Below are positions 38,200 to 57,115 of a stretch of DNA of 64,000 nucleotides, piece after piece. The DNA lies in NCBI GenBank assembly GCA_964639255.1, contig CAZXDP010000009.1, forward strand, positions 788 to 64,787, written 5' to 3'. Under the pieces are notes generated by a model. That model saw only the letters and a list, made by a program, of their open reading frames with translations, was not told where the DNA came from and searched no databases. This stretch comes from an uncultured Flavobacteriaceae bacterium (GTDB lineage Bacteria > Bacteroidota > Bacteroidia > Flavobacteriales > Flavobacteriaceae). Position 1 is the stretch's first letter; every line of letters begins with the position of its first letter. Both the position numbers and the translations under genes were made by a program.

Positions 38200-39174
38200 T
38201 TATTTTCTTCTCTTATTGTTCCCCACGGTGCACGGACAATCGCTTAACCCTTGTAAGAGATCTAGCCCTAGGGTTACCGAATGTGTTCCCGAATTGTACG
38301 CCGAAAGCTCATTGGTGGTTAAAATATAGGAATAGGAGAAATAGAATATCGATTTTTTGAATCCCACCATTGGGCCAATGTTGAGAGGCTTCAGGAATTG
38401 ATCGTTAAGAAAGCGATAGGAAGCGCCTACCCAAAAGTAATCGTCGTAACTGTTGAATTTTCTGTACTTAAGGTTCAAATCGGTGCTGGATCGTTGGTCG
38501 CTCACGAAGAATTGGGTGAACAAGGAAGGCTCCCACTGCGAATAGTTATCGGCATCGATCACATATCCCGTATACACTTGCAGATTGAGCAGGTTATTGG
38601 GTTCAAATCCGGTAAAATCATCGATTTCCTTCGGCAAAATGTTATTGGCGTTGAAACTGAGATATGCTTTTTGGATCCTGTACAGGAAGCCTACATCAAA
38701 ATTAACATTGGTGACCGCCCGGTCATCGACAATGCTAGGGTCGACGATGGGGATATCGTAGGTAGGCTCAAAGTTTTCGATATCGATTCTAAAATTGTTC
38801 ATATTGAATGACAGGCCCAAGGACAGGTATTGTTTCGATTTATAATCCAATATTAAGTGGTGCGCATACGATACCTTAAATCCTTGTTGCCTCGTGTTTC
38901 CATTTCTGTCGTTATAAAGTGAGAGGCCTGCCCCAGAGCGGCTGGCGATGCGTGCATCGACATAAAGGGCTTGATTGTCTGGAGCATCTTTAATGCCTAC
39001 CCACTGGGTAAGGCCATTTACACGGGTTCTAAAATTATCGCCAATACCGGCAAAGGTTGGGGAAACTACAAAGTCACTATCGGCGAGATACTGAGTAAAC
39101 ACAGGCAAATTCAACTCTTGCGAAGTTGCCTGTGCCACCACGAGTAACACTATATATTTGATTAGATTTTTCAT
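38200..39174 (-). CDS. sprF: PorP/SprF-family type IX secretion outer-membrane protein
   Basis: Signal peptide, then ...LNLPVFTQYLADSDFVVSPTFAGIG... (family pattern p-x-f-t-q-Y...NPa-x-aG). Beta-barrel-like alternation, about 320 aa. It starts 39 nt downstream of a type-B-CTD giant adhesin, as sprF does after sprB. Confidence 0.72.
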   Translation of the reverse strand: MKNLIKYIVLLVVAQATSQELNLPVFTQYLADSDFVVSPTFAGIGDNFRTRVNGLTQWVGIKDAPDNQALYVDARIASRSGAGLSLYNDRNGNTRQQGFKVSYAHHLILDYKSKQYLSLGLSFNMNNFRIDIENFEPTYDIPIVDPSIVDDRAVTNVNFDVGFLYRIQKAYLSFNANNILPKEIDDFTGFEPNNLLNLQVYTGYVIDADNYSQWEPSLFTQFFVSDQRSSTDLNLKYRKFNSYDDYFWVGASYRFLNDQFLKPLNIGPMVGFKKSIFYFSYSYILTTNELSAYNSGTHSVTLGLDLLQGLSDCPCTVGNNKRRK

Positions 39175-39213: not shown

Positions 39214-42200
39214 TTAGCGGTACAAGGTGAAATGCCCTACAAAATCTCTGTTGGAATTTGCCGCGAGCTTTACTACGTACCAGTAATCTCCCGTTGGCAA
39301 TTCGGAGCCGTTGTACCTGCCGTCCCAGCTTTCACCTGCCCGGAGCTCTGCTACCTTTCGTCCATAGCGGTCGAAAATAGCAGTCAAAATATTGGGGTAA
39401 TATTCTGCACATCCCGGTTTCCAGGTGTCGACGACACCATCGCCATTCGGGGTAAAATAGTTGGGGATACATATTTCTATGAATTCTAAGAATATTAGGG
39501 CTTGTGCTGTACAACCACTGCTATCTGTAACGGTCACCAAATATTCACCTGTTTCGGAAATGATAAAGGAATTGGTACTGCCATAATCGGTTCCGTTCAA
39601 GGTATATACATATCCTCCCGTACCTCCCGCGGTATTCGCCAAAATCTCGTTGAGGCCACCTTCCGAAAGGGAGAGGGTAAGGGGATCAAATTGGCCAATA
39701 TTGAAGAATTCTGTTGAAACGATACAACCGTTACTGTGTCGCACCAAGATATAATTGTCTTGACTTGGCGGCAGGTTCTCGAACACGTTGCTACTCTGGT
39801 AGGGACCACCGTTCAACGAATAATCAATCTGCGATACATCGGTATTGCTGTCATCTACCGTAACGGTCACTACATTGCCCGTGAAATTATTCTCACATAT
39901 GTACTCCAGATCTATAAAAGGATTCAACAATACAGCATCCGGGAATTCAATTTCCTGCTCCCGTTCGCAACCGTTGGCGTCGCGTATATACACCACGTGG
40001 TTGCCACCGCCCAAGTTGTCGAAATCAAAAATGGTTTGGGTAGGTGTTCCAGCAGTATACGGACCGTCATAATTGTTCAAACTTACACTATAGGGTGGGG
40101 TTCCTCCTTGAATTTCAACACTGAAGGCACCATCGGCATCGCCCACGCAAATCTCTGGCAGGGTAGAACCCGGTACAATATCTGCTAAAATAGGTGCTGG
40201 CTCTGCAATGGTAAAGCTATAGTTTATGAAGCAACCAAGTTCATCTTGAATAATGGCATCATAGTCTCCCGGAGCAAGATTCTCAAAACGATCGGTCACG
40301 AAAAACTGGTCTAACCTTGGCGAAATGGCGTATTGTATAGTTCCAGTACCACCAATTCCGTTGAATTCTATCCATCCATCCCTATCTCCAAAACAAAGCA
40401 CATTGCCAATTTCAGGATCAATTTCAAGGGCCGTATCGGGTTCGGTAATTTCAATGGTTTCCGAAGTTTCGTTACAATCGTCACTTTCCACATAGACCGA
40501 ATAGCTACCTGCCGCCAGTTCATCGAAAATTGCTGGGGTATCGATGGAGGTTCTTATTGTATTCCCTGCACTGTCCCGTAGGTAATACACATAATTGCCC
40601 AAACCACCCAAGGCCCTTGCCACGATTACTCCCGTCTCGTCGCCCACACAATTGATGGTGGGATTGGTCGAATTTAGTACGATTTCCAAATCTGGTAACG
40701 GATCAATGGTAATATCATTGGTGACATTGGCGATACATCCATTATCATCTCTCACATAATACCTATAAGTTCCTGGTGTTACGCTAAAGGTTGTCGAGGT
40801 AGTAAACGTCCCTAAAATGGGCGTAAAGCTAGGATTGTCACTATACTCATAAGGCCCCGTTCCCCCACTTGCGCTTAAGGTTAATTGCGTATCGACCGTA
40901 CAAGTTTGCGTGCTTTCCACAATAAGATTGGGCGAAACCTCTGTTGGCTGGTTAATGATCACGTCCTCAGATTCGAAAACGCACTGAAGTGCATCGGTAA
41001 TTCGGACTTGGTATACCCCAGCCGATAGATTCTCAAAAATAGGGTTCGTTTGTGGGCCAGAGGTAAAGCTATCTGGCGACGATTTTACAAGTGTATACAA
41101 ATAGTTGCCTCCCTGTCCTCCTGAGATATTAATTACTTCAATGGTACCATCTTGGTCTCCATAGCATTCCAATGTGATGTTGTTCGCGACAAAATCGGCG
41201 TCAATGGGATCAGGCTGTTCAAGAGATACCGTTGCAATCTCGATACACCCTTGAGCATCCCGAACGGTGACCGTGTAAATTCCTGCACCGAGGTCTTCAA
41301 AAACATTGACCGGAGAGAAAGGTACATTGACCGGGCCGGATAATTGAAAGTTGTAAGGCGGTGTTCCGCCAGAGCCTACTGCCGTAATGATTCCACCATC
41401 ATTATCGCAAGTAACTGGAGCAGTTTCATTGGCTACCACATCTACTGCGGAATTGGGAGCATCTATATTTACCACATTTGAAACCGTGGCACAAAACGGA
41501 CTGTCGGTTTCAATAATTTCAACAGAATAATTACCTGCGGCTAAACCTGTTATCAACTGCGGATTTGTGGATGTATTGGCAGTTATGGGGCCACCGATAG
41601 GGTTCCCGGCACCATCCAATAACTGGTAGGTGTAGTTTCCGGTATAGCCGACGATATCCAATTCCATTTCGCCAATGGCATCACCAAAACAATTGTTATC
41701 TGCAATCGGTGTTAAGGTGGCTTCAATTAAATCGAATGGTGGAACCTCGAATGCGTTCGTCAAATAATAACAGTTGGTGTCCAGATCATTTACTTGGAAG
41801 TAATAATTGCCCGGACCAGGAATACTGAAAATATTAGAGGTTTGGGGCAATCCGTCAGGGAGCATCTGATACGTATAATTTCCGCCTGGAGGTGTTACGA
41901 TAATTTCAATTTCACCTGTATTGTTACAATCGATAGGAGAAACTATCCCAAAGCTTGCAGCCGTAATGGTTTCTAGAGGATCGATCGTAATCGTATCCGT
42001 AGCGATACAGCCATTGCTATCTTGAACATAAGCGGTAATGGTTTGAACTGTTCCATCGTCGATGACGGTAAAAGTGTTGTTTGTAAAATAATTTAGGTTG
42101 TCTAAACTATAAAGGTAGCCAGGTGTTCCGCCTAAGCCTGTAATGATTACAGTTACGGTGCTCGGAGTGTTATCTGGGGTGCAAACAAACGCATCTGCAG

Positions 42201-45200
42201 TAGCTGAAGCATCCAATACCGGCGGTTCGCCAATTGTTGCATCGGCCGTTGCGATACAGTCCCTTCCCGAAGTCACTTGAACGGTATAGGTGCCTGTGGG
42301 CAGTCCGGTAAAAATGTTCGATGTTTGCGCCGGAACAACAATTGGAGCGATTATCTCATAGGTATATATTGGATTATTATTTCCCGGTGCTAAGGTGACA
42401 GTAATAATACCGTCGCTACTACCTACACAACTGGTATCGGTTGTATTGGTTGTAAATGTTACAGGAGTGGCAGCTTCCATGGTAATTGCTACATCCTCTG
42501 TACAACCTGTCGCAGTGTCTGTTACAGTAATCGTGTAGGTACCTGAGGGCACTCCACTGAAAACATTTCCAGCTAAGGTTATCGAGGGTGGATTGGGTAC
42601 TATGGAATAGGTATAGCTACCCGTTCCGCCATTCGCATTAACGGTAATCACTCCATCATCATTACTACAACTAGGCAATGAGGTGGCGGTGGCGGCAAGA
42701 CCCAAAGGCGGAGCAATGGTTACCGATACTGTATTGCCGCAACCGTTGGCATCGTTTACCTCAATGGTATGGGTGCCAGAGCTCACATCAGTAATGGTAT
42801 AGGGTAGCGTCTGAGTTTGGAAAGAACCGCCGTTGAAGCTAATGCTGTAGGGAGGTATTCCAGCGCTCACCAAGGTAACATCTATTTCAAAATCGCCTTC
42901 AGCCGTATCACATTGGTTGGTCACATTTGCATCAATTACCGGTGCTGGGTCTTCTGGTAAAATGGTCGCAGGGCCAGTAACAATACAACCATACGCATCC
43001 TTTACGTGAATATAATACGTCCCTGCATTGGCATTGAACGTGTTGTTCGACCCCCAAGAAGGATCGGTTGGAGCTGGAGCTGCAGGTGTTGTTGTCATTT
43101 GATACTGGTAGGGTGGTGTTCCATCCTGACCGAGTGCGCTAATGACACCAGAATTTGCATTACAGTTGGCATTTTGATCTACCGTCACATCTATATCCAG
43201 TTGAACCTGCGATTCGGTAATGTTAAAGGCTGCGGTAACCACACCACAACCCGCGTTGGAGCCAGATGTTTCCGTGATAAGAACAAAATAACTGCCCACG
43301 GGTAATGGGCCCAAATCGGTAACGGTTATAGAACCTCCGGCCGGTATCACACCAGAACCATTGATTCCTGTAGTAGTTGTGGTGGTAGATTCATAAATTT
43401 CATAATCTACATTCACCGCTGTTGCGTATGTACTATTTACGGTAAAGGTTACGGTACCATCGGCACTTCCCGTACAGGTAACATTATTGCTGCTTACCGC
43501 ATCTACCGTTAAGGTTGAATTTGTTGGTACCGGAATGGTGGATTGCTCGTAGTAATAGCATTGTGTCGATTCATCGTATACGATAAATGTGTAGGTAACT
43601 CCTGGGATTAGCCCAGTAAAGGTGGCCGAACGGCTTCCTGCCGGAGTTTCGGGAATCCACGTTCCTCCAGGTGGCGGAACAACAACGCCCCCGTTATAGA
43701 TATCGAACCAGAATGGACCGGCGCTCGGCAGTGAGGACGCAACTGTAACCACAGCGGTTCCGCCAGTGGCACAATCTACTGTAGTATCAATATCAATATC
43801 CAAATCACTTGGTGGAGAAGCTATTAATATATTCTGAATAAGCTCCACACAGCCATTGGCATCGATTACCCGTAACTCATAAATCCCGAAATCTAGGCCC
43901 GAAAAGGTGAAGGAAGCGCTACCATCGTTATCTATTTCAGAACCTGTATAGCCATTGGAACCTGTCAAGTAGTAATCATATAATGGTGTACCGCCAGAAA
44001 CTCCGGTTATTGTAATTTCACCTTGCGAAGTACCCCCGGGCGTACACGTAATGTCAACACTAGTATAATTCACGGCAATTGGGTCTGGTTCGGTAAGAGT
44101 TATCGTGTCGGAATCGGAACAAGCATTGGCATCGGTAAGGGTTACGGTATAGGTTCCCGCGGGAAGTCCTGTCGTTTGTGTTCCGTAATCGATTCCGGAA
44201 GTGTTGTTGAAAACATTAATGGTAAAGGGAGGCGTACCCGCAGAAGGATCAAAAGTTACGTCAATTGCTCCGTTGGCATCCCCGTTACATAGGATGTTTT
44301 GCGATTGGGCCACGACATCCAATTGGGGCAATGATAGCGGGTCGATCGTTATAATACCAGATTCTACCGTACAACCTTGGGCATCGGTTACTTCAAATTG
44401 GTAGGTGCCCGGTGTTCCGGTGGGATAGGTAAAGGGGGAACCCGTGGCGCCCAAAGCCGTGTATGCACCTCCATTAAAAGATACGGCGTAGTTGAAGGGA
44501 GCTGTTCCGCCGCCAATAGTACCCGTTATAATAGCATCTGGATTTGTTGTGCAATCGAGATCTTTCGTTAAAACAGCACTTAGGGTTAGCTCTGGTGCGA
44601 TAACTTGGGTAGGAAGGGTTACCTCGCAACCCAGCGCATCCCGAACGATAATTGTATAGCTGCCTGGTCCTAATCCAGTAAAGACATTGCTGGACTGGAA
44701 CGGGCCGCCATTCAGACTAAATTCAAAGGGAGCTTGTCCTGCCGTTACGGTGACCTCAATGGAAGCGCCGTTCGTAGTGTCGTAACATAAGTCGGAGGCA
44801 AGGCTAATTTCAGCCACTGGCGTTACGGGTGCGGTCAAATCGAACGTATCGGTCACGATACAGCCATTGGCATCTTCTACCGTTACGATATAGGTGCCGG
44901 TTTGGGTTAATCCAATAAAGATATTGCTGCCCTGTGGGCCTAGCACTGTAGCATCAGGGAGTTCTAAGCTATAAGAATTTCCGCCCCAGCCACCTGTGGC
45001 TGTTATGGTGACACGACCTGAGTCTATACAACTTATAGGGGTTACATCTGTTGTAAAGGACAGCGGTGTATTTGGTTCGGCCACAATGACCGATGTGGTT
45101 GCTTCACAGTTGGTATCATTGTCGGTCACCACGATGGTATAAGTTCCTGCGGCAAGTCCAGTAAGGATTATTGGCGAAGTCCCAGCGGTTGGGAGTCCGC

Positions 45201-48200
45201 CATTGATGGTATAGACGAAATTTGTGGTGCCTGATACGGTAAATCGAACCGATCCGTCATCATCGCCCACACAGGTTACATCGTTTAGATTTTGGCCTAC
45301 GACCGAAATGGTAGGCAATGGCAAAATGCTGTACGATTCGCTATAGGTACATTCGTTGGCGTCACGTACTTGGAAGGTATAGGTACCAGGAGCTAATCCT
45401 GCAAAAATATTAGAAGATTGATATGGTGTTGCCGCTGCAGCGGGTGCAATAATTTGATATTCCAAAGGTGCTACACCACCGCTCCCTGCTGGTACCGTAA
45501 CCGTAACCGTGGTCTCATTGGTAGGGCAGGTAAGGGGTGTGTTGCTAAAGGTTAAATCTGTGGGAGGATCTAGTGGCGGAATGGTAATTTCATTGGTTAC
45601 AAATGTACAATCGTTGGCGTCTCTTATCGTAACACTATAGGTTCCTGCTGTTAATCCTGTAAAGATTGGACTTGTCTGGTAGGTAACTCCATCGATGCTA
45701 TATTCATAAGGAGGTGTACCGCCAGATACGCCGGTTACCTCAATCGTACCTGTTGCATTACAAGTATAGGGGGAGGTTAATTCTGCGATTCCCTCAATGG
45801 GCGTCGCGGTGTCAATAACGACTTGTTGTGCTGGTGTAAAACAAACCGATGACCCTACTGTATATTCCACGACAGCTAAGTAAGTGCCTGCTGAAAGTCC
45901 CGTAAAAACAGGAGAGTTGCTAAACGTTCCCAAGGGGCCATTAATTCCGTAGCGCAAGGAATTACCATTCGGGTTGGAAACGTTGAAGGTAATGCTACCC
46001 GTATTTCCAGGTTCGGCGCAAAGAATATCCTCGTGGGTAACCATAAATTCTGGTGCAGGTATTTGATTTATAGTAATTGTAGTAGTCGCCTCACAATTGT
46101 TATTATCAACCACCCTAATGTTATAAGTTCCTCCTGGTGCTGAGACGGCAAATACAGGATCTGTCTGAAATACGGTGGTGCTATTTATATAATAGAAGTA
46201 GGGAGGGGTACCGCCCTGCGGATATATGGTTATTTCCCCGTCTGTACATGTAAGGGGTTCGGTTATCGCGGCCGAAACCGTAAGCTCGGGTGGTTCTACT
46301 ATTTCCACATCTCCTTCAAAAAAGCAACCGTCTTCGGTTTCCACTACCGCTCTATAGAAGCCCGGGTTTAAATTTGAAAACGTATGGCTGTTAGGGGCAA
46401 TGGGACCTACACTATTTATCAAAGTCGCTCCTTGGTATAGCGAATAAAAATATTGCGGTTCCGCATCGTTCGCAGCTAAAGTAATGCTACCCTTGTCTCC
46501 ATGACACAAAGGTTGGGCGATGTTGGTTGTTACGGTAAAATCTCTTTCCCTTATCTGAATGTCGGGTACTGTAAACACACACGCCTCTTCTGGATTGGGC
46601 AATCCCGATTGCCTAATGTGTACCGTATACAACCCGGCCGCTGTTATCGTAAATTCATTGCTGGCCTGATAAGTAACACCGTCTAGGCTATATTCGTATC
46701 CGCTTGGTACATTGATAACACGGATACTTCCTGGGGAATCGCAAATAATATCGGTAGCCTCCACATCGGGGTTCAGTAAATTTTGGTAGACGTTGAAGTA
46801 AAACTGATTGAAACATCCGCCTGGATAGTTGATTGTGAGCCTAAATTGTCCGGCCGTATTGGCCGTATAATTGGGACCCGTAGCAATTTGGTTCCAGGTA
46901 CAAGAAGGGTTCTCGTTGGCACAATCTGAATTTCCAACGGGAGTACAACTGGTTTCATCCAACTGTTCCCAAATAATTGAGGTGGCCTGTCCCAAATCGA
47001 CATTGAGCTCTGTAAAATCATTGAGACCGCAGAGGTAAATATTTGGAAGTTCTTTCCCGTCATTAGGGCAAATTACCACTTCATCGGCATAGGGGATAAT
47101 GGGATTGGTAATGTTCGCGCCGTACAGCGTAACATTGTATTGTTGCACGATGGAACGGCATGGGGCGGCCGCCGTGTTGAACGAATAGTACGTTCCCGTG
47201 GCAATCACGGTAATGGTTTGGCCCGTGCCAATAACAGGGGTGCCGGAAGGATCTGTAGACCAAGAATACGATACGTACCCTGGTTCAGCCGTTAGTTCTA
47301 TGCTATCTCCACAGAGTACCTCGTCTTGTTCAAATACGCAATCGTCAAGATCTACCAAAGTGTTGGTTACACTTGGCGTAGTTAGACATCCTGTATTGGT
47401 GCTATAACTGGGATCGTCTGTAATTTGAAAATCGGGGTTGAGTGTGCCGTAATAGGTTGCGAAGGCTTGGTTTTCAATAATGTTAGAGCATACTGGTGCC
47501 AATTGCTGGCAGGTTTCAACCACATTCGCCTTGATCCGTATTTCTGAAAGGGGCGTATTCTGTAGGACTAGATAATCTTCAATGCTAAAAACAAGCTCGC
47601 GCGCCACAGGATTATAGGTATGTGTTACCCCAGCGGGGAGCGTAAGGTCGGCCTCATCAAATTCAATGTTAATGGGCAGAACATCCCTAATAGTGAAGTT
47701 GCGGGCATCGTCGTTTCCAATGTTTTGGAAACCAATAACATAATTGAGCTCTTGTCCAAGATTTACAGGTTGGCCGCCAATATCGTTGCCAAATTCATCC
47801 TCTACGATTTTTGTAAGCAATATTCTGGGCTCGATAATTTCCACCGCGAACGCAAATAGGTACTGTAAGAAGAAATCGCTCGAGGTTCGTAAACTCATCG
47901 TTGCTTGCGTATCGCCGTTGTTGATTACACTATTGCCAGGATTTGGCACCCTAAGGATACCCGAATCGAACCCTAAGGTGTTGGCACTATTGAGGTTTCT
48001 ATCGTTTACTGGGGTGGCATCCAACTGGGTGACGGCACTTCTGAAAAAGTTGTTGGCAGGCCTGTCTGTCGTGGAAAGGTTCGTTCCGTTTAGCGCCATT
48101 TGATCTCCTGTAATCGAAACATCGCCTTCTAATGTGGCAAAGGCCAAGTTAGCCCGCACGGGCTGGGGTGCAGGAACGGTCCTAAATCCATCTACAATAA

Positions 48201-48897
48201 TATCCACGTCGGGAATATTTCTAAAAATAGCACTGAATCCATCAAAACTTGTAATGGATTTGCTGGGCAGAGTAAGATCTTCATAAACAACCAATAAAGA
48301 CCAGCCTGCACTATTTCCATTACGGTTGTTCTGTTGGTTCCCAACACCTTCTCTAGTTGAAATGTTACCCACGGTGTAGGTGCCCTCGGCATCAGTACCG
48401 TAGCTTTGCAACATGGTAGTTACATCGGCTACGCACGCATAGGGATAGGCATCGTTTAATGGGGTGGTCTGGTCGCGATAGATAATTTCACCTGTAATAT
48501 CTACGTAACCACCTGTAGGGCCTTTGAACCTCACTTGATTTACAACAGGATCGTCTGAGACCACAGCTGCCCAATAGAGGCTTGCGTGCACGATTTCATA
48601 ACAATCGGGATCGGGAAATTCCAAATCGGCGCTACTTGAATTGAACGTACTGGGGTCGCCATCAATATCCACATAGATCATGTTGATATTACTATTGTTC
48701 CCGGCATTTAGATCATTAAAGGGGACATTGCTATAGGGCCCAAGGTTATTGTTTCCTATAAGTTCAATATCGCCTTTTAGATCATCATCAAACCGTGGGG
48801 TAAAAGGAATGAGGTTCTGCGCAAAACCGTGTAGTCCAAAGAGCAACACTAGGGCTACTAAGACAACTTTTTTGGGGTGGGGTAATGGTTTTTTCAT
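39214..48897 (-). CDS. Giant SprB-like cell-surface repeat adhesin with T9SS type-B (gliding motility-associated) C-terminal domain
   Basis: 3227 aa with a signal peptide. There are roughly 30 tandem modules of about 75-85 aa with the SprB-repeat-like pattern C-x-G-x2-(D/N)G-x-I ... GG(T/V)PPY-x-Y ... F-x-(G/N)L-x-(A/P)G-x-Y ... D-x-(N/Q)GC. The last 85 aa (39217-39471) read CIPNYFTPNGDGVVDTW...GRYNGSELPTGDYWYVVK...GHFTLYR, matching the TIGR04131-type CTD as I remember it. Confidence 0.85.
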   Translation of the reverse strand: MKKPLPHPKKVVLVALVLLFGLHGFAQNLIPFTPRFDDDLKGDIELIGNNNLGPYSNVPFNDLNAGNNSNINMIYVDIDGDPSTFNSSSADLEFPDPDCYEIVHASLYWAAVVSDDPVVNQVRFKGPTGGYVDITGEIIYRDQTTPLNDAYPYACVADVTTMLQSYGTDAEGTYTVGNISTREGVGNQQNNRNGNSAGWSLLVVYEDLTLPSKSITSFDGFSAIFRNIPDVDIIVDGFRTVPAPQPVRANLAFATLEGDVSITGDQMALNGTNLSTTDRPANNFFRSAVTQLDATPVNDRNLNSANTLGFDSGILRVPNPGNSVINNGDTQATMSLRTSSDFFLQYLFAFAVEIIEPRILLTKIVEDEFGNDIGGQPVNLGQELNYVIGFQNIGNDDARNFTIRDVLPINIEFDEADLTLPAGVTHTYNPVARELVFSIEDYLVLQNTPLSEIRIKANVVETCQQLAPVCSNIIENQAFATYYGTLNPDFQITDDPSYSTNTGCLTTPSVTNTLVDLDDCVFEQDEVLCGDSIELTAEPGYVSYSWSTDPSGTPVIGTGQTITVIATGTYYSFNTAAAPCRSIVQQYNVTLYGANITNPIIPYADEVVICPNDGKELPNIYLCGLNDFTELNVDLGQATSIIWEQLDETSCTPVGNSDCANENPSCTWNQIATGPNYTANTAGQFRLTINYPGGCFNQFYFNVYQNLLNPDVEATDIICDSPGSIRVINVPSGYEYSLDGVTYQASNEFTITAAGLYTVHIRQSGLPNPEEACVFTVPDIQIRERDFTVTTNIAQPLCHGDKGSITLAANDAEPQYFYSLYQGATLINSVGPIAPNSHTFSNLNPGFYRAVVETEDGCFFEGDVEIVEPPELTVSAAITEPLTCTDGEITIYPQGGTPPYFYYINSTTVFQTDPVFAVSAPGGTYNIRVVDNNNCEATTTITINQIPAPEFMVTHEDILCAEPGNTGSITFNVSNPNGNSLRYGINGPLGTFSNSPVFTGLSAGTYLAVVEYTVGSSVCFTPAQQVVIDTATPIEGIAELTSPYTCNATGTIEVTGVSGGTPPYEYSIDGVTYQTSPIFTGLTAGTYSVTIRDANDCTFVTNEITIPPLDPPTDLTFSNTPLTCPTNETTVTVTVPAGSGGVAPLEYQIIAPAAAATPYQSSNIFAGLAPGTYTFQVRDANECTYSESYSILPLPTISVVGQNLNDVTCVGDDDGSVRFTVSGTTNFVYTINGGLPTAGTSPIILTGLAAGTYTIVVTDNDTNCEATTSVIVAEPNTPLSFTTDVTPISCIDSGRVTITATGGWGGNSYSLELPDATVLGPQGSNIFIGLTQTGTYIVTVEDANGCIVTDTFDLTAPVTPVAEISLASDLCYDTTNGASIEVTVTAGQAPFEFSLNGGPFQSSNVFTGLGPGSYTIIVRDALGCEVTLPTQVIAPELTLSAVLTKDLDCTTNPDAIITGTIGGGTAPFNYAVSFNGGAYTALGATGSPFTYPTGTPGTYQFEVTDAQGCTVESGIITIDPLSLPQLDVVAQSQNILCNGDANGAIDVTFDPSAGTPPFTINVFNNTSGIDYGTQTTGLPAGTYTVTLTDANACSDSDTITLTEPDPIAVNYTSVDITCTPGGTSQGEITITGVSGGTPLYDYYLTGSNGYTGSEIDNDGSASFTFSGLDFGIYELRVIDANGCVELIQNILIASPPSDLDIDIDTTVDCATGGTAVVTVASSLPSAGPFWFDIYNGGVVVPPPGGTWIPETPAGSRSATFTGLIPGVTYTFIVYDESTQCYYYEQSTIPVPTNSTLTVDAVSSNNVTCTGSADGTVTFTVNSTYATAVNVDYEIYESTTTTTTGINGSGVIPAGGSITVTDLGPLPVGSYFVLITETSGSNAGCGVVTAAFNITESQVQLDIDVTVDQNANCNANSGVISALGQDGTPPYQYQMTTTPAAPAPTDPSWGSNNTFNANAGTYYIHVKDAYGCIVTGPATILPEDPAPVIDANVTNQCDTAEGDFEIDVTLVSAGIPPYSISFNGGSFQTQTLPYTITDVSSGTHTIEVNDANGCGNTVSVTIAPPLGLAATATSLPSCSNDDGVITVNANGGTGSYTYSIVPNPPSITLAGNVFSGVPSGTYTITVTDTATGCTEDVAITMEAATPVTFTTNTTDTSCVGSSDGIITVTLAPGNNNPIYTYEIIAPIVVPAQTSNIFTGLPTGTYTVQVTSGRDCIATADATIGEPPVLDASATADAFVCTPDNTPSTVTVIITGLGGTPGYLYSLDNLNYFTNNTFTVIDDGTVQTITAYVQDSNGCIATDTITIDPLETITAASFGIVSPIDCNNTGEIEIIVTPPGGNYTYQMLPDGLPQTSNIFSIPGPGNYYFQVNDLDTNCYYLTNAFEVPPFDLIEATLTPIADNNCFGDAIGEMELDIVGYTGNYTYQLLDGAGNPIGGPITANTSTNPQLITGLAAGNYSVEIIETDSPFCATVSNVVNIDAPNSAVDVVANETAPVTCDNDGGIITAVGSGGTPPYNFQLSGPVNVPFSPVNVFEDLGAGIYTVTVRDAQGCIEIATVSLEQPDPIDADFVANNITLECYGDQDGTIEVINISGGQGGNYLYTLVKSSPDSFTSGPQTNPIFENLSAGVYQVRITDALQCVFESEDVIINQPTEVSPNLIVESTQTCTVDTQLTLSASGGTGPYEYSDNPSFTPILGTFTTSTTFSVTPGTYRYYVRDDNGCIANVTNDITIDPLPDLEIVLNSTNPTINCVGDETGVIVARALGGLGNYVYYLRDSAGNTIRTSIDTPAIFDELAAGSYSVYVESDDCNETSETIEITEPDTALEIDPEIGNVLCFGDRDGWIEFNGIGGTGTIQYAISPRLDQFFVTDRFENLAPGDYDAIIQDELGCFINYSFTIAEPAPILADIVPGSTLPEICVGDADGAFSVEIQGGTPPYSVSLNNYDGPYTAGTPTQTIFDFDNLGGGNHVVYIRDANGCEREQEIEFPDAVLLNPFIDLEYICENNFTGNVVTVTVDDSNTDVSQIDYSLNGGPYQSSNVFENLPPSQDNYILVRHSNGCIVSTEFFNIGQFDPLTLSLSEGGLNEILANTAGGTGGYVYTLNGTDYGSTNSFIISETGEYLVTVTDSSGCTAQALIFLEFIEICIPNYFTPNGDGVVDTWKPGCAEYYPNILTAIFDRYGRKVAELRAGESWDGRYNGSELPTGDYWYVVKLAANSNRDFVGHFTLYR

Positions 48898-48970: not shown

Positions 48971-51604
48971 CTAATTTTCTATTTTATATAGGGATAATTG
49001 TTTGTTAAAGGGTTCGTTTTTCTGTGCTTCCATAATCCTATTGGCATCTTCAATTCTATCAATTCTTTGGTAATAGGTGTAATATTTACTACGGCTAACA
49101 TCGTAGAAGAAATCTACACCGCTGTATCCAGCGGCGATTACCTTGCGCAAGAAAGTATTTCGCTCCTCTGCCGAATTGTGAACTGCCATCACCAAATAAT
49201 ATCCATTCTCCGTATTGGCCACGTTCTTCAAAATTTGTACGTTGTTGCTCTTCTGTGCCTCGCCAAAATTAAAATCAGCTTCAGATAGTGGGGTACTGCT
49301 TTGCTCTGTGGTTTGCTTAATGCTATTTAGGGTCGATCTATCACGGCGGAAGCGGTCATCCTCATTGTTATAAGCGGCTCGCTTTATACGACGCTTTCTC
49401 TCAATATCGGTAGCTACCGCAATTTCCTGTAGTGAGGAAACCAACTGTGCCTTTTCTCGTTGTGCCGCCTGGAGTTCAGCCTGAAGCTGGCTCAATGCGT
49501 TTTGATAGTACAAATTGAATTCCTTATCAATGCCGCCTTCCTTAGCAAAACGCTGTTGGTACAAGGCTTCCAGCTCCTCGATTTTCTTGCGATAAGTGAG
49601 GATTACCTCGTCTAGATTAATTTTTATAAGATCGATAGCCGCATTTTCCTCGGTGATGCTCTTAAAAGGTTTTGGTTCTGAAAAGATGCCCTGTTCGCTT
49701 AGATCGTTTTCCCGTTTCAAATCTTTAAGATCTTGATCTTTAATAGCCACGGCATCGCGTAACTCCTGTAGCAAATCATTCTTATTGGCAGCCGTTGATT
49801 GGGTTTCTTCCAAAAGTGATTTCATAGATGTGGCCAAGGCATCGGTATACTGCGCCAAGGTATTTTCCGTTGTCGCTTCTATCACGGGTTCAGTTTGGGC
49901 AAGTTGCTCTTGCTCGGCCGCCAATCGCGCTTGTTCTGCAGCTTCAAGCTGAGCCAATCTTTCAGCTTCCAACCGAGCTTTCTCTTGAGCTGCTGCCAAT
50001 GCTCTTTGTTCAGCAGCCAAACGTGCTTTTTCTTCTGCTTCAAGCTGAGCCAGTCTTTCGGCTTCCAGACGCGCTTGTTCCTCGGCTTCCAAGCGGGCTT
50101 TCTCCTGTGCTTCGGCTAATGCCTTTTGTTCAGCAGCCAAACGTGCTTGCTCTTCCGCTTCAAGCTGGGCAAGCCTTTCAGCTTCCAGACGCGCTTTTTC
50201 CTCGGCTTCCAAGCGGGCTTTTTCTTGAGCTTCTGCCAGAGCTTTTTGTTCAGCGGCCAGACGTGCTTGCTCTTCCGCTTCGAGCTGGGCAAGCCTTTCA
50301 GCTTCCAGACGCACTTTTTCCTGTGCTTCGGCTAATGCCTTTTGTTCAGCAGAAAATCGTGCTTGTTCTTCGGCTTCAAGCTGGGCCAGTCTTTCTTCTT
50401 CCTGTTGTGCTATCGCTTCGGTTGCAGCAGCTTGTTCGGCGGCTAACTGTGCTTCTGCTAAGGCTTCTTGCTCTTTTTCTTTTTGTGCTGCCTCCTGTTT
50501 GCGCTCCTCCATCGCAGCTTCCCAGGCCTGTTTTCTCGCACTGTTTTTGGCTCGCTGTTCCTCTCGTGCTGCCGTCAGGGCAGTTTCCTCTTCTTGAGTT
50601 AGATTTTGCTTCTTACGTTTTGGAGATTTTTTTCGTTTCTTTTCAAAAGACAGTAAACCTGCCATATCCTCTTCTTTACTGAAATCGAAATAGTCGTTGT
50701 TCGCAAAGCGGTAGGCCAAAGTAAATTCGTGGGTGACGCCGAATTCCGAAAAATCCCCCAAGGGTTTTTCAAAGTTGTACTCTATGGCAATCTCCTTGGT
50801 GAGGTTAATACCCAGACCCACAAAGGCACCGTGAATGCTATTATAGCCAGCTTGACTCCATATTCCCCTGGGAACGGTGAACATAATAGATCCAGTAAGT
50901 TCGGTAGTTTCTTGCCGAAAAGCGGCCTGGCCTAATGCCGAAAATTTACTATCACGGAAAAAGCCATAGCCTCCCGTATAGCCCGTATACATTATATGCC
51001 CCTGAATGCCCTGTTGGGGGTCGTCTTCCAAGAGCGTGGATGCATTGACATTGTAAGCCACCAAATTGTTTACCGAAATGCCGAAATCGAAAAAGGCGGT
51101 CCCATAATTGACGCCTGGCGTTGCGGTGAACATGAAATTTGAGGGAATGTTATTGAGCACAGGGTCTGGTTGGTTGGTCACCACTCGATCCATATTAACA
51201 CCACTTTGGTAAGCGGCGACGTTTATTCCAAAGGTGAGGTTGCTTTCCCGCTGCAGCTGTGCGTTATAGGCAAAATTGGCAATGCCACCAAATGTGGTAA
51301 GCACCCCGAAGTTCTGCTGAAAGGCACCAATTCCCACTCCCATATTTTCTTGAATCCTTCCAGAGAAGCTGGCCAAATAGGTTACAGGCGCGTTTTCTAC
51401 CTGCTGCAACTCCCTTTTGTTTGAAATGGCGATGAATTTATTTTGTTCTCGAACAAAACTGAAAGTAGGATTTAGGACAAATCTGTTAAACGTCATGGAA
51501 TTTCTCACCGGTAGATCCAAGGGAATAGCCCCTTCTCCTTCCTGAGAGGAAATCGTCTGTATAAAACAGAGTGCGAAGAACAAATATGTCGCAGTTTTTT
51601 TCAC
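48971..51604 (-). CDS. PorP/SprF-like barrel - long E/A/Q/K/R coiled coil - SPOR-like C-terminal domain fusion protein
   Basis: 877 aa with a signal peptide. Residues about 25-310 are PorP/SprF-like (...MTFNRFVLNPTFSFV..., beta-strand alternation, ...HEFTLAYRF). A basic linker KKRKKSPKRKKQ follows. Residues about 334-745 are heptad-like and charged, with tandem repeats. Residues about 798-877 (...GYYLVMAVHNSAEERNTFLRKVIAAGYSGVDFFYDVSRSKYYTYYQRIDRIEDANRIMEAQ...) look like a SPOR fold. The GTG start lies 1 nt after the upstream gene's stop. Confidence 0.6.
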   Translation of the reverse strand: MKKTATYLFFALCFIQTISSQEGEGAIPLDLPVRNSMTFNRFVLNPTFSFVREQNKFIAISNKRELQQVENAPVTYLASFSGRIQENMGVGIGAFQQNFGVLTTFGGIANFAYNAQLQRESNLTFGINVAAYQSGVNMDRVVTNQPDPVLNNIPSNFMFTATPGVNYGTAFFDFGISVNNLVAYNVNASTLLEDDPQQGIQGHIMYTGYTGGYGFFRDSKFSALGQAAFRQETTELTGSIMFTVPRGIWSQAGYNSIHGAFVGLGINLTKEIAIEYNFEKPLGDFSEFGVTHEFTLAYRFANNDYFDFSKEEDMAGLLSFEKKRKKSPKRKKQNLTQEEETALTAAREEQRAKNSARKQAWEAAMEERKQEAAQKEKEQEALAEAQLAAEQAAATEAIAQQEEERLAQLEAEEQARFSAEQKALAEAQEKVRLEAERLAQLEAEEQARLAAEQKALAEAQEKARLEAEEKARLEAERLAQLEAEEQARLAAEQKALAEAQEKARLEAEEQARLEAERLAQLEAEEKARLAAEQRALAAAQEKARLEAERLAQLEAAEQARLAAEQEQLAQTEPVIEATTENTLAQYTDALATSMKSLLEETQSTAANKNDLLQELRDAVAIKDQDLKDLKRENDLSEQGIFSEPKPFKSITEENAAIDLIKINLDEVILTYRKKIEELEALYQQRFAKEGGIDKEFNLYYQNALSQLQAELQAAQREKAQLVSSLQEIAVATDIERKRRIKRAAYNNEDDRFRRDRSTLNSIKQTTEQSSTPLSEADFNFGEAQKSNNVQILKNVANTENGYYLVMAVHNSAEERNTFLRKVIAAGYSGVDFFYDVSRSKYYTYYQRIDRIEDANRIMEAQKNEPFNKQLSLYKIEN
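49892..50395 (-). repeat. In-frame tandem coding repeats (96- and 120-bp units)
   Basis: Protein residues 404-572 contain ERLAQLEAEEQAR(F/L)(S/A)AEQKALAEAQEK(V/A)RLEA four times, in 32- or 40-aa versions, plus a partial fifth. The DNA shows the matching near-identical CTTCAAGCTG(A/G)GC...TTTC(A/G)GCTTCCA periodicity. Confidence 0.85.
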
Positions 51605-51605
51605 G

Positions 51606-53078
51606 TCAGCGCACTATGGTTAAAGTTCCTTGAATGGGTTCTTGGCCGTTTTTGACAATTCTATAATAAAAAACTTGGTTGGTATTGTCGATTAGGTTCG
51701 TTCCAGTATCTGGCCAGTTGTTGGTATACTCATTCGTTTTGAAAACGACCTCCCCCTGGCTGGAAAGTATGGTAATATCGGTTCCTGAACCTTGTGTGTA
51801 CTCGAGGGGAATTATCCAGGTATCATTAATACCGTCGCCGTTCGGGCTTACGATATTGGGAATTTTTGCTACATCTGGAAAAGGCTCTGTTAGTTCGGTA
51901 ATTTGAAAAATAAGTTCTTTTGTGGCGTTACAGCCTTCGGTTTGCGTTACCGCAACGGTATAGTTTCCGAAGTCGGTCGCCTCGTAGCTATTTTCGGTGG
52001 CGTTTTCAATGGGCTCACCATTCAGGAACCACTCAAAAATGGGTAGCTGTGCATCGGTAATGACATTGACTAGCAAGCTTTCTCCCATCATCATTTCGTT
52101 TACGGGAGCTACATCGATCTCTGCCTGGAAATCGCCCGCTACCAATTCTATGGAGCCTACTGCTTGGCAACTACCAAAGCCGACTACAACGGAGTACGTT
52201 CCAGAAATTTCTGTGCTGTAGGTACTGTTGGTCGCACCGGGAATATCCTCCCCATTTAGGGACCATTGATAGCTATTGCCTTCAATGGTTGAAAGAATAG
52301 TTGGTCCATTGCCATTACAAAATGGATTTCCCAGACTGGAGGTGATGGTGGCTATGGTAGTTCCGCCACCCTCTGCCTCGGTTACGGTAACCCGATTGGA
52401 GAACGAATCCGAGGTACAGGTGCCATAGTCCGTCTCGGCAAAATAGGTGCCTTCTTGAGATACTTCCAAAGAGTCGCCCTTCGCCACAAATATTGAAGTA
52501 GTGCTGCTGGTTACCCGAAACCAGTTGAAGGTAAGCTGGGGATACTGCAAGGGTGAATCATTATTTCCGGTGCCAGGATTGTCAATGGTAAGGAGGTAGC
52601 TCCCGCCCGGACAAAACGTGGCTGTTGGCTCTAGGTTATTGATGGTAAAAGGACTGTCCTGTATTTTGTAATAAGCCGCAAATGCTGCAGATCTCGCCCC
52701 GACTACAGCGGGATTGGTAGACCGAACCCTAATTTTATACCCTTCGCCTGCCGTATTGGTAGGTAAGGCAAAAGAAATTGTGGCGGGAGAGGACGTAATG
52801 GCACCGGGAGAAGAACTAAAGACTTGTGTTGGGGCATCGAAATTACCGTCTCCGTCAGATAGCTCGAGAATGAAACTGTTATTGGCGCCCAATGCCTGCT
52901 CTGGCGTAAACGCAAAGGTTGCGCTAAATGTATTGAAAGATGCATTAGCACAGGCTTGGTTAAATTCCAAATTAGGTGCGCCAATGGCGAATTGTGCCCA
53001 AGCGCGTGTACCCGATGCAAGGGCAAACAAACAGGTTAGGAGCGTTACAACTTTTACGTAGGTAGTAGTTTTTGGCAT
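51606..53078 (-). CDS. Secreted Ig-like-domain protein with T9SS type-B (gliding motility-associated) C-terminal domain
   Basis: 490 aa with a signal peptide (...LASGTRAWAQ). The body is Cys-paired and beta-rich. The last 85 aa (51609-51863) read IPNIVSPNGDGINDTWIIP...NQVFYYRIVKNGQEPIQGTLTIVR, the same CTD type as the giant adhesin. Confidence 0.7.
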   Translation of the reverse strand: MPKTTTYVKVVTLLTCLFALASGTRAWAQFAIGAPNLEFNQACANASFNTFSATFAFTPEQALGANNSFILELSDGDGNFDAPTQVFSSSPGAITSSPATISFALPTNTAGEGYKIRVRSTNPAVVGARSAAFAAYYKIQDSPFTINNLEPTATFCPGGSYLLTIDNPGTGNNDSPLQYPQLTFNWFRVTSSTTSIFVAKGDSLEVSQEGTYFAETDYGTCTSDSFSNRVTVTEAEGGGTTIATITSSLGNPFCNGNGPTILSTIEGNSYQWSLNGEDIPGATNSTYSTEISGTYSVVVGFGSCQAVGSIELVAGDFQAEIDVAPVNEMMMGESLLVNVITDAQLPIFEWFLNGEPIENATENSYEATDFGNYTVAVTQTEGCNATKELIFQITELTEPFPDVAKIPNIVSPNGDGINDTWIIPLEYTQGSGTDITILSSQGEVVFKTNEYTNNWPDTGTNLIDNTNQVFYYRIVKNGQEPIQGTLTIVR

Positions 53079-54737: not shown

Positions 54738-55184
54738 CTAGTTAAATTCATCGAAAGTGTGAAGTGCTTTCAAAGTTTGTTCATAAAACAAGATCGCTGC
54801 GATGAGGTTCGACTTATCAGAATAGGGTAAAATCAATTTCTGAAAGGCAATGGTGTTTTCAAAATAAGTAGACGTAGCTTGAATATTGTCTTCCAAAGCT
54901 TTTCGATGCTCCTTAGTATCAGGAATCCCTAACGAGCTCATCGTTACGCCTGGTTTTGTAGTAAAAGCGATATTAGGTAATATCTTGATAATTACTTCAA
55001 TACGGGCATTGTAGAGTTCGAGCAATTTTCCCTTGGGAAAAGATTCGAGCTCTTCCCTATCGTGGTACTTATCGATATTAACGTTATCGCTTATGATAAA
55101 TTGGGCGTCTTTCTGCGCCAAAGTGGTCGCGGTACCAAATACGAACAAAACAACAAAAAGTGCGAGGGTAGTTTTCATAGTCAT
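54738..55184 (-). CDS. Small secreted hypothetical protein
   Basis: Signal peptide MTMKTTLALFVVLFVFGTATTLAQ. 148 aa. No recognisable motif. It is flanked by its own putative promoter and terminator. Confidence 0.5.
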   Translation of the reverse strand: MTMKTTLALFVVLFVFGTATTLAQKDAQFIISDNVNIDKYHDREELESFPKGKLLELYNARIEVIIKILPNIAFTTKPGVTMSSLGIPDTKEHRKALEDNIQATSTYFENTIAFQKLILPYSDKSNLIAAILFYEQTLKALHTFDEFN

Positions 55185-55372: not shown

Positions 55373-55403
55373 AAAAAAAACCGCCTTGTATCACAAAGCG
55401 GTC
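55373..55403 (-). terminator. Intrinsic terminator after the SusD-like gene
   Basis: On the - strand, ACCGC(t)TT-gtgatac-AA(g)GCGGT is followed by T8 (the + strand A8 at 55373-55380). It lies 20 nt downstream of the stop at 55424. Confidence 0.55.
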
Positions 55404-55423
55404 TTAATTGGGGTGTAAAACTG

Positions 55424-57115
55424 TTAATCAATGAAACCGGCTGGATTGTTGTCCCAAAAAACCTGAGTGGTAGTTGGCTTGAATTCCAGATTTGGATTCA
55501 ACGAGACCCAGTCAACTGGGTAAGGTATCGATCGTGGGAAAGGCTCTTTGCCAAAAACGGGCGCTTGTAGGTCGGGCATTCCTGTTCGGCGATATAGATT
55601 GTAGATTTCAATACCATTTCCAAAAGCGGCCAGGAAATATTCTCGCGCTACGACAGCAAGCTTTTCCTGGGCGCCAGCGTCATTAAATTCGGCCAGTACT
55701 CTAGCCACATAGGCGTCAACATCGGCTTGTGACGCCTCCAAATTTATTCCAGAATTGGGACTAACGGTGTTAAGCCCATCTGAAAATCCCAGGACCTTCT
55801 GCATACTTTGACGTATGGCAGTTTCTAAGTATTCATTCGGGCTACCTGGTGTGCCCAAGGTCAAAGATGCCTCGGCTAGCATAAAATGGGTGAAGGAACT
55901 CAATGCAATTGGGAGAATTCCCCCTCCAGAGAGCGTGTTGTCGCTCATTCGTGCCTGTTCAAAGGCATCGTTGTCAAATGCGCCGCCAATGGGATACACT
56001 CCTAATGTTGATCGCCTTGTCCCGTCGTTTGGCAAACCCTCATCGTCAGCGTGATCGCGGCCCCAGTATAGATTTCCAACATAGCAATAATCGTAGACGG
56101 GATCGCCCGCGCACGGTAAATTACTGCCAGATGGAGGGTTTTCCGTTTGCCTGTAGGTATAATATCTTAATCTAGGATCGGCGATGCCCTCTTCGATAAA
56201 TGGCGGATTGGCGTCTCCTGCATTAAGATAGTCCAGCATATTGTTGCTTAGGTAGAAAGTTGCGCCACCGCCTGAATAATTTAGGTAGTACCATAGGTGC
56301 TCATCTAAAGGAAAAGGGCCAAAGTCGTATTTATAATAAAAATCTTCGTTAGGCTGGTCTATAAGGTCTTCATTTAACAAACGGGTAATCCCAGCTGTCG
56401 CCCTCGCTGGATCCACAAGACGTAAGTTTAAGAATGCTTTTAGCTGAAGCGTATTGGCAAATGCTATCCACTCTTGTTTGTTGAAATTTTTACTATTGTA
56501 AATTTGAAGGGGAATTTCAGCAGAGCTCTTCTCAAAATTGATCTTGGCAGAATCTAAGGCAGCGATTTGTGCATCGTAAATGAAACTGCCGTCGTCCAGC
56601 CCTGCCGAATATGAACTGTTCACATCGGTAGCTTCGGTATAGGGAATATCTCCGTGGAAATCTACCGCCGTCATAAATTGATACGCCTGCATCACCTGTG
56701 CGGTGCCTCTATAATAAGGGATGTCGTAAATATCGGTAGAATCGAACCGACGAATATAATCCAAATTCTGCTTAGATTGATACAAGGTGTGCCACGAATT
56801 GCTGCCAGAAAAAGGCACATTGTTCGTATACGTGCTAAACATAGCAAGGTGTCTCACAAATCGTGTGCTTACCAAATTATAGTGGTTATAATAGTCTATT
56901 GTTCTGTCTAAAATATATTTTAGATAGATATCGGGATCTCCCGGGGGCAGGCCATTCGCCCCTAAGGCGCCATCGCCACCACCATTATTGGGAGTGTCTG
57001 CGATAGGATCATCAGGAACAGGATCGCCCATATCATCGGTCTCACTGCAACTGGCAGAGAAAAGTACCATTAAAATAAAGGCCAAAAAGACGTTTGGGGT
57101 GAGTGTATTTTTCAT
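55424..57115 (-). CDS. SusD/RagB-family outer-membrane lipoprotein
   Basis: Lipoprotein signal ...VLFSASC. ...AYQFMTAVDFHGDIPYTEA... matches the SusD-family xFGD(V/I)PY block. The alpha-helical TPR-like composition, 563 aa length and C-terminal ...VFWDNNPAGFID also fit. Confidence 0.7.
   Translation of the reverse strand: MKNTLTPNVFLAFILMVLFSASCSETDDMGDPVPDDPIADTPNNGGGDGALGANGLPPGDPDIYLKYILDRTIDYYNHYNLVSTRFVRHLAMFSTYTNNVPFSGSNSWHTLYQSKQNLDYIRRFDSTDIYDIPYYRGTAQVMQAYQFMTAVDFHGDIPYTEATDVNSSYSAGLDDGSFIYDAQIAALDSAKINFEKSSAEIPLQIYNSKNFNKQEWIAFANTLQLKAFLNLRLVDPARATAGITRLLNEDLIDQPNEDFYYKYDFGPFPLDEHLWYYLNYSGGGATFYLSNNMLDYLNAGDANPPFIEEGIADPRLRYYTYRQTENPPSGSNLPCAGDPVYDYCYVGNLYWGRDHADDEGLPNDGTRRSTLGVYPIGGAFDNDAFEQARMSDNTLSGGGILPIALSSFTHFMLAEASLTLGTPGSPNEYLETAIRQSMQKVLGFSDGLNTVSPNSGINLEASQADVDAYVARVLAEFNDAGAQEKLAVVAREYFLAAFGNGIEIYNLYRRTGMPDLQAPVFGKEPFPRSIPYPVDWVSLNPNLEFKPTTTQVFWDNNPAGFID

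Follow-up and report, generated by a model that had tools for sequence, protein, structure and literature searches.

In a 64,000-nucleotide stretch of DNA from an uncultured Flavobacteriaceae bacterium (assembly GCA_964639255.1, contig CAZXDP010000009.1, positions 788 to 64,787 of the forward strand), referred to throughout as the window, the minus strand carries the genes remF, remG, sprC, sprD, sprB and sprF in this order (operon naming, remFG-sprCDBF, from PMC9723704). The product of the fourth gene is a PorP/SprF-family outer-membrane barrel that continues into a long repeat helix, a conserved helical module and a small end domain with a predicted SPOR-like fold, and its identity as the orthologue of SprD is close to certain. 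Taking the evidence as a whole, we propose, with a probability of about one half, that SprD is a dedicated carrier of the type-B surface protein SprC and that it is fitted with a slack periplasmic tether. This offers a concrete hypothesis for a gliding protein whose function has been unknown for 15 years. The requirement for SprC and SprD in colony spreading has reportedly been known since 2011. Reviews describe both proteins as needed for spreading and their role as unknown (PMC9389320, PMC10202324), and loss of sprD leads to non-spreading colonies with residual motility, a phenotype that is known only from Flavobacterium johnsoniae (cited in PMC9389320).

Type-B cargo of the T9SS (type IX secretion system) depends on a PorP/SprF carrier of its own, to which it remains attached and whose gene usually lies next to that of the cargo (PMC10202324, PMC9143113, PMC12635249). 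SprF is the carrier of SprB and, as reported in 2025, is propelled via a Cys-X-Cys motif in its periplasmic C-tail, which is disulfide-bonded to GldK (PMC12635249). SprC reportedly also rides the gliding track, where it keeps moving normally in the sprF C324A (single-cysteine) mutant (PMC12635249). The SprF-GldK disulfide raises the question of how other track riders such as SprC are coupled. The anatomy of SprD, a PorP/SprF paralogue paired with SprC by gene order that belongs to a nearly cysteine-free family and bears an uncatalogued tail of ~250 residues on a slack helix, makes this question testable.

Identification of SprD

The gene is an 877-aa open reading frame (ORF) at window positions 48971-51604, on the minus strand and with a GTG start. 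The original prediction had given these coordinates exactly; the strand is the minus strand, and the plus-strand translation of the same region is riddled with stops. The assignment to SprD is based on operon position, on homology to the Flavobacterium psychrophilum locus and on the match of a F. johnsoniae primer in a close relative. In F. psychrophilum (locus L001), genes for proteins of 145 aa, 430 aa, 477 aa (with a CHU_C match) and 854 aa (PorP_SprF; P0274) are followed by SprB, and remF, remG, sprC and sprD of the window have collinear homologues in this locus, with sprB and sprF next in the window. The window SprD shares 34% identity over its full length with the product of the F. psychrophilum gene at the sprD position (1e-156). 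The primers used to delete sprD in F. johnsoniae are printed in PMC9870892, where primer 1296 is described as the 'final 33 bp of sprD'. This primer encodes G-K-M-A-I-V-K, the C-terminus of the SprD family. A genome of the johnsoniae clade matches it exactly at L022:14270-14291, in the last 33 bp of an ORF of 1433 aa. The product of that ORF has the same architecture as the window SprD and is 48% identical to it in the barrel and 40% in the last 370 aa. Primer 1295, from the 5' end of F. johnsoniae sprD, has no exact match in the genome contigs or in the 82 loci, and none in L022 even at 3 mismatches; strain UW101 is apparently not one of these loci, and the likeness to Fjoh_0980 of strain UW101 is drawn from primer-derived peptides and the close johnsoniae-clade relative. 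Operon order, full-length identity and the match of primer 1296 thus bear out the earlier suggestion that the protein may correspond to SprD.

SprD is a known family, and its fused architecture is visible in public annotation; the existence of the protein will not surprise a T9SS specialist. Database searches returned 1712 matching proteins, the top 120 of which are all full-length relatives of 780-1095 aa from genera that include Winogradskyella, Xanthomarina, Psychroserpens, Gelidibacter and Aureisphaera. These top 120 are annotated as 'PorP/SprF family', with one (P0101) labelled 'TolA protein'. Such proteins should be annotated as SprD-like, and not by the generic 'PorP/SprF family' or by 'TolA', which is wrong. 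A Flavobacterium-type query found the same architecture in many Flavobacterium species, with 239 genomic relatives, from which 80 loci were kept (82 loci in all). By these sequence searches, barrel, helix and end domain are combined as a norm throughout the SprD family, and the fusion is in no way special to this genome. SprD of F. johnsoniae (Fjoh_0980) and of F. psychrophilum (THC0290_0024) occupies the same position between sprC and sprB, with the same barrel, repeat helix and tail of ~250 aa. The johnsoniae-clade protein is 1433 aa long compared with 877 aa in the window, where the repeat helix is shorter, and the helices of Flavobacterium SprD proteins are rich in Ala, Lys and Asp, whereas the window helix is acidic and rich in Ala, Glu and Gln. 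The searchable literature, which does not include the key J. Bacteriol. papers, holds no description of the helix with its 8-residue repeat, of the constant tail or of the shared SPOR-like end domain.

The GTG start codon of sprD lies 1 nt past the stop codon of sprC (window 51604-51606) and gives an MKK... leader, as in all homologues. In the identical deposited protein (P0001, 870 aa) the start has been called 7 codons further downstream (window 51584-51604, minus strand); this public gene call looks truncated, because the GTG start yields the common MKK... leader and the conserved 1-nt junction with sprC. The same 1-nt gap is present in F. psychrophilum and in 79 of 82 Flavobacterium loci (position 10000 in L001 and L022), and sprC is immediately upstream of sprD in all 82. 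An exact gap of this kind suggests that translation of sprC and sprD is probably coupled.

Domain architecture of SprD

Signal peptides of Bacteroidota are as a rule cleaved before Gln (the 'Q-rule'), and on this basis Gln21, which is invariant in the SprD family alignment, is probably the first mature residue after the hydrophobic leader MKKTATYLFFALCFIQTISS. The barrel that follows was recognized by the profiles PF11751 (PorP_SprF; residues 32-298, 9.7e-42, 143.8 bits, cutoff 22.3) and TIGR03519 (4.2e-46, 157.7 bits, cutoff 90.55). An AlphaFold2 model of full-length SprD, built on 25 homologues and with a mean predicted local distance difference test (pLDDT) score of 70.7, has 14 strands within residues 57-299, and PorP has been described as 14-stranded (PMC9143113). 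In Foldseek searches the whole model hit outer-membrane barrels, among them OmpG, FadL and, from the T9SS complex, PorV (8gl6_F). The N-terminal PorP/SprF barrel that had been proposed from the sequence is thus confirmed by both profiles, the predicted strands and the structural matches; its identity with the SprF barrel of the same operon is only 21%. The Lys/Arg linker noted earlier is also present directly after the barrel (EKKRKKSPKRKKQ), and in 182 homologues the first 50 residues past the barrel have, at the median, a net charge of +4. No cysteine follows the signal peptide in SprD. Of the same 182 homologues, 175 lack cysteine after residue 30, and the periplasmic module is cysteine-free in all of them.

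The linker leads into a stretch of ~240 residues (337-578) that is modelled as one uninterrupted helix at low confidence (pLDDT about 50). It consists of 29% Ala, 25% Glu, 13% Gln and 12% Leu, has a net charge of -26 and is built from 8-residue units (RLEAEEQA / RLAAEQKA / LAEAQEKA...) arranged in super-repeats of 16, 32 and 40 residues. At the DNA level, Tandem Repeats Finder (TRF) detected periods of 24, 96 and 120 nt at window positions 49965-50402, in agreement with the tandem-repeat block of ~170 residues that had been pointed out before. The same helix had been called 'heptad-like'. However, Fourier analysis gave a hydrophobic period of 8.0 residues and no peak at 3.5 or 7, which gives no support to a heptad coiled coil. 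Across homologues, period 8 is the commonest (top in 84/200) and period 7 is on top in 11/200, while peaks near 5, 4 and 3 account for a further 86/200 and are read as harmonics of the 16-residue unit. The coiled coil had also been taken to extend over ~400 residues. Instead, the low-complexity helix ends after ~240 residues, and residues ~580-787 form a separate, conserved and non-repetitive module.

The length of this helix is not fixed. Between the end of the barrel and the DLKDLK motif that marks the start of the conserved tail, 201 full-length homologues have spacers of 145-738 residues, an about five-fold range. Even within one species, F. psychrophilum, SprD alleles of 847-1070 aa (P0229-P0282) reflect a polymorphism in repeat number. 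As a single helix, the 242 residues in the window would measure ~36 nm at 0.15 nm per residue, well over the distance from the outer membrane to the peptidoglycan. The match between helix and this distance that the original prediction had drawn therefore fails, and a fixed ruler between outer membrane and peptidoglycan is ruled out by the spread of spacer lengths. The likeness to TolA domain II that had been noted survives in composition and architecture, with no sequence or Pfam relationship. TolA likewise combines a membrane anchor, a long periplasmic helix rich in Ala and charged residues and a small globular end domain. However, none of the TolA families in Pfam or NCBIfam matches SprD, and TolA is anchored by an inner-membrane transmembrane helix, SprD by an outer-membrane barrel.

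Apart from the barrel, residues ~580-787 are the best-conserved region of SprD. Helices are predicted at residues 589-637, 650-689, 694-745 and 748-765 (pLDDT 84-92), and the invariant motifs are DLKDLK-ENDLSEQG...PKPFKS and ERKRRIKRA. The module has no meaningful match in Pfam, in NCBIfam or among PDB sequences. From the DLKDLK motif to the C-terminus the distance is a constant ~251 residues across the 201 homologues, and this tail of helical bundle and end domain belongs to a constant C-terminal part of ~290 residues. Some SprD homologues (P0061, P0063, P0066 and P0115) have two helical modules in tandem (NPTDxIGKS...DLKDLKEEN...), the first copy being without RRIKRA and without an end domain.

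The end domain (residues 790-876) has beta-alpha-beta-beta-alpha-beta topology plus an extra N-terminal strand in the full-length model (pLDDT 82-92), and the same topology was obtained when the domain was modelled in isolation (pLDDT 65.8, core about 80). Its residues Tyr803, His809, Phe833 and Tyr841 are invariant. A SPOR-like C-terminus had been predicted, and its topology is upheld by both models; its membership in the SPOR family is not, since the Pfam, profile, hhalign and Foldseek results are all non-significant. Pfam SPOR (PF05036; gathering score 21 bits) did not match the last 90 residues even at E<=10. An hhalign comparison with three true SPOR domains gave a probability of 1.6% (E 0.031), with beta1-alpha1 aligned in the right register. 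The SprD family profile found no SPOR chain among PDB sequences, a negative that carries little weight because a true SPOR domain itself scarcely finds them (phmmer E 0.077). Foldseek with the isolated domain returned non-significant ferredoxin-like folds only (best E 0.088). The top TM-scores belonged to the SPOR structures CwlC (1x60; 0.51/0.63) and DedD (6ztg; 0.51), at E about 0.3, and ACT, PII and RRM folds reached equal or better E-values. Sub-threshold Pfam SPOR matches in the right register were seen in 2 of 22 family members (best E 0.012; one scored 15.5 bits).

Among 1.84 billion representative proteins, an exhaustive search with SprD residues 572-877 found only 102 clusters. These relatives include HU-CCDC81 membrane proteins (P0211, P0204, P0222 and P0205), which have a homologue of the SprD end domain directly behind a canonical SPOR domain (Pfam 3.9e-11 to 2.3e-13), and a few OmpH/Skp-like lipoproteins (P0171, P0172 and P0196), which bear the helical module and the end domain; the OmpH-type P0171 is a singleton on a 3-kb contig. 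As judged from these domain combinations, the helical module and end domain are mobile and not confined to PorP barrels. The beta1 motif in the relatives outside SprD reads LGAF or LDAF, which is SPOR-like, whereas in SprD the GAF-type motif has become AVH. With SPOR domains the SprD end domain has in common the predicted fold, the best TM-scores and relatives that adjoin a true SPOR domain, and it differs from them in this motif and in the absence of a significant sequence, profile or structural score. It is plausible that the end domain has a SPOR-like fold and is an offshoot of SPOR, its membership being unproven. Overall, the three-part architecture of the original prediction, a barrel, a long helix and a small end domain with SPOR topology, was essentially right.

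Possible function of SprD

We consider the odds to be slightly in favour of SprD being the cognate carrier and surface anchor of SprC, a pairing that is drawn from gene order and from the rule that a gene for type-B cargo is paired with the gene for its own PorP/SprF carrier. The barrel family (TIGR03519) and the position right after a gene for cargo whose C-terminal domain (CTD) is of type B are common to SprF/PorP and SprD, and the role as carrier and anchor presumably is too; SprD would then do for SprC what SprF does for SprB. The C-terminal extension very probably lies in the periplasm, because both termini of an even-stranded barrel face this compartment and the C-tail of the homologous SprF is periplasmic. 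Here the two proteins differ. SprF has the Cys-X-Cys tail for the disulfide with GldK, whereas SprD has none and carries a periplasmic extension of ~575 residues instead. Without such a tail SprD could not hook GldK by a disulfide, and the extension may stand in for it. The helix would act as a slack leash with a reach of at least ~12 nm (our own estimate, from the shortest spacer of 145 aa) that brings the conserved end module to a partner at some distance from the membrane.

As to this partner, the cell wall is favoured because even the shortest reach is at least ~12 nm, because the rails of the gliding track lie directly beneath the outer membrane (PMC9870892) and because relatives of the SPOR-like domain stand beside true SPOR domains. 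Binding of the end module to peptidoglycan, which would create an 'in-cis' version of the PorP-PorE-cell-wall bridge, is proposed tentatively, on the basis of the predicted fold, and we rate it somewhat below even. In Porphyromonas gingivalis, PorE bridges PorP to peptidoglycan, and the PorP-PorE-PG1035 system, in which a barrel-held type-B cargo is linked to the wall, follows the same logic as is proposed here for SprD (PMC9143113). Six of the ten porP-like genes of F. johnsoniae adjoin porE-like genes, and sprF does not (PMC9143113). PorE is a lipoprotein in its own right, in which TPR, beta-propeller, CRD and OmpA_C domains are combined, whereas in SprD the putative wall-binding part is fused in cis via a long helix and is SPOR-like; OmpA, TPR and propeller domains have no match in SprD or in the operon genes scanned. 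More doubtful is the wider notion that SprD links a type-B T9SS carrier with the envelope by a second route that needs no disulfide, as a 'PorP-PorE in one polypeptide'. In such a system the barrel would hold the mobile SprC, and a single alpha-helix of 8-residue repeats, variable in length and not a coiled coil, would leash the barrel to a hitherto unrecognised SPOR-derived wall-binding module; the HU-CCDC81/SPOR membrane proteins and the OmpH-like lipoproteins seem to have taken up this end domain as well. Should this notion hold, the leash would restrict or steer the lateral movement of a part of the gliding machinery relative to the sacculus, like a reversed TolA.

Several points weigh against a tethered SprC carrier. 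The mobility of SprC (PMC12635249) and the proposal of Gorasia et al. that mobile type-B proteins are not anchored to the wall (PMC9143113) conflict with a stable peptidoglycan anchor on the carrier of SprC; a slack or transient tether is what they would call for. Also, the pairing of SprC with SprD is read from gene order, and none of the tests backs SPOR membership of the end domain (Pfam none, PDB profile none, hhalign 1.6%, Foldseek E>=0.088). The spacer range of 145-738 aa argues against a precise structural role for spacer length, and the long helix is modelled with low confidence (pLDDT about 50).

The main alternative, a rather unlikely one, is that SprD is a mobile carrier whose helical module (with its invariant ENDLSEQG...PKPFKS loop) and/or end domain binds the moving GldK/GldJ/GldN track non-covalently, in place of the CxC-GldK disulfide. 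This would explain how SprC rides the track; in its favour are the normal movement of SprC in the sprF C324A mutant (PMC12635249) and the fact that a cysteine-free SprD, if mobile, needs another coupling device. The helical module, the most conserved part outside the barrel and without a known family, is typical of a dedicated protein-protein interface, and PorP has been reported to contact PorK (PMC9143113). However, a spacer of ~12-100 nm (our estimate) would be unnecessary for reaching a track directly under the outer membrane, and the presence of the end domain in barrel-less HU-CCDC81/SPOR and OmpH-like proteins points to a general ligand of the envelope, as opposed to one specific to gliding. 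Moreover, multirail structures persist in the spr mutants examined in a study for which a sprD deletion strain was built (PMC9870892).

We consider it improbable that SprD, instead of carrying cargo, serves the SprB adhesin complex as a structural accessory, for instance as a strut or damper in the periplasm by which SprB/SprF are organised on the cell, with a barrel that is no more than a membrane anchor. Such a role would suit the need for SprC and SprD in spreading, with their role unknown (PMC9389320), their listing among the 'proteins that support SprB function' (PMC5879114) and the drop of outer-membrane SprD, in parallel with other gliding proteins, that is seen in lolA1 and TamL-depleted mutants. 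Yet the barrel scores far above the PorP/SprF cutoffs and its gene has the canonical place just downstream of one for a type-B CTD protein, the 1-nt junction between the two being conserved, and SprB is already served by the SprF carrier encoded in the same operon.

Very improbable is an extracellular location of the long helix and end domain, as a fibrillar surface stalk resembling the Ala-rich helices of the streptococcal M-protein type. An Ala/Glu-rich repeat with strain-level length polymorphism does recall surface fibrils under diversifying selection, but with 14 predicted strands the C-terminus is expected on the same, periplasmic side as the N-terminus, the SprF C-tail is periplasmic (PMC12635249) and the end domain is found in company with SPOR and OmpH-like domains, which are periplasmic.

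Antisense to the repeat helix, the plus strand contains a 284-aa ORF (window 49828-50682), which is most likely a mirror ORF arising from the GC-skewed low-complexity repeat and not a gene. It illustrates that long ORFs form readily in this region, but the idea that the three-part sprD ORF is itself an artefact, whether from a sequencing error that joined two genes or from low-complexity repeat DNA that gives a spurious ORF, is refuted by full-length collinear homologues with the same N- and C-terminal domains in hundreds of genomes of many genera and by the identical protein P0001 that has already been deposited.

The gliding operon and its surroundings

The coordinates of the SprD regions and of the other operon genes are collected in Table 1. 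The SprF C-tail in the window contains Cys-Pro-Cys (residues 313-315; window 38230-38238, minus strand), and from this match to the twin-cysteine C-tail of F. johnsoniae SprF we read the GldK-bonding motif as kept in this marine flavobacterium. The gap between sprB and sprF is 39 nt.

Table 1. Regions of SprD and genes of the gliding operon in the window
Feature	Window position	Strand	Evidence
SprD signal peptide, residues 1-20 (MKKTATYLFFALCFIQTISS)	51545..51604	minus	Hydrophobic leader visible in sequence
SprD PorP/SprF-family 14-strand outer-membrane beta-barrel (predicted), residues 32-299	50708..51511	minus	PF11751, TIGR03519, AlphaFold2, Foldseek
SprD disordered polybasic linker, residues 300-336 (EKKRKKSPKRKKQ), probably periplasmic side	50597..50707	minus	pLDDT <50 for residues 307-337
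SprD Ala/Glu/Gln/Leu-rich continuous helix (predicted), residues 337-578	49871..50596	minus	AlphaFold2 single helix, TRF, Fourier analysis
SprD conserved non-repetitive helical module, residues 579-787	49244..49870	minus	Invariant alignment columns, pLDDT 84-92
SprD C-terminal ferredoxin-like (SPOR-like) domain (predicted), residues 788-877, ends ...KIEN	48974..49243	minus	AlphaFold2, Foldseek
remF orthologue, 148 aa, first gene of the operon	54738..55184	minus	42% identity, 9e-40 to F. psychrophilum
remG orthologue, 433 aa	53183..54484	minus	47% identity, 4e-145 to F. psychrophilum gene at remG position
sprC orthologue, 490 aa, surface protein with type-B CTD	51606..53078	minus	CHU_C 8.8e-13; 38% identity, 5e-95 to F. 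psychrophilum SprC
sprB orthologue, 3227 aa, 24 SprB repeats and type-B CTD	39214..48897	minus	PF13573 7.8e-75 (24 stretches), CHU_C 2.7e-16
sprF orthologue, 324 aa, stand-alone PorP/SprF barrel	38200..39174	minus	PF11751 1.1e-66

The operon is flanked by uvrB downstream (35945-37945, minus strand; NF003673, 1042 bits) and by a gene for a SusD-like lipoprotein upstream (55424-57115, minus strand), and neither appears to have a functional tie to the gliding genes. Directly after the SusD-like gene and upstream of remF lies a strong terminator-like hairpin of 13 pairs with a T-run (55377-55405, minus strand), which, as read from the sequence, marks where the gliding operon begins as a transcription unit of its own. 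A TAnnTTTG-type element (TATTTTTG) is located ~90 nt upstream of the remF start codon; a search upstream of remF for a sigma-54 motif like the one published for F. psychrophilum gave nothing above chance. In johnsoniae-clade genomes an additional ORF of 138 aa is present between remG and sprC (L022:8132-8548) and overlaps the start of sprC by 4 nt; neither the window nor F. psychrophilum has this ORF, which is without a Pfam match. In F. psychrophilum, locus L001 has its sprB broken up into four ORFs, which could mean a pseudogene or an assembly error, whereas the gene is continuous in locus L002.

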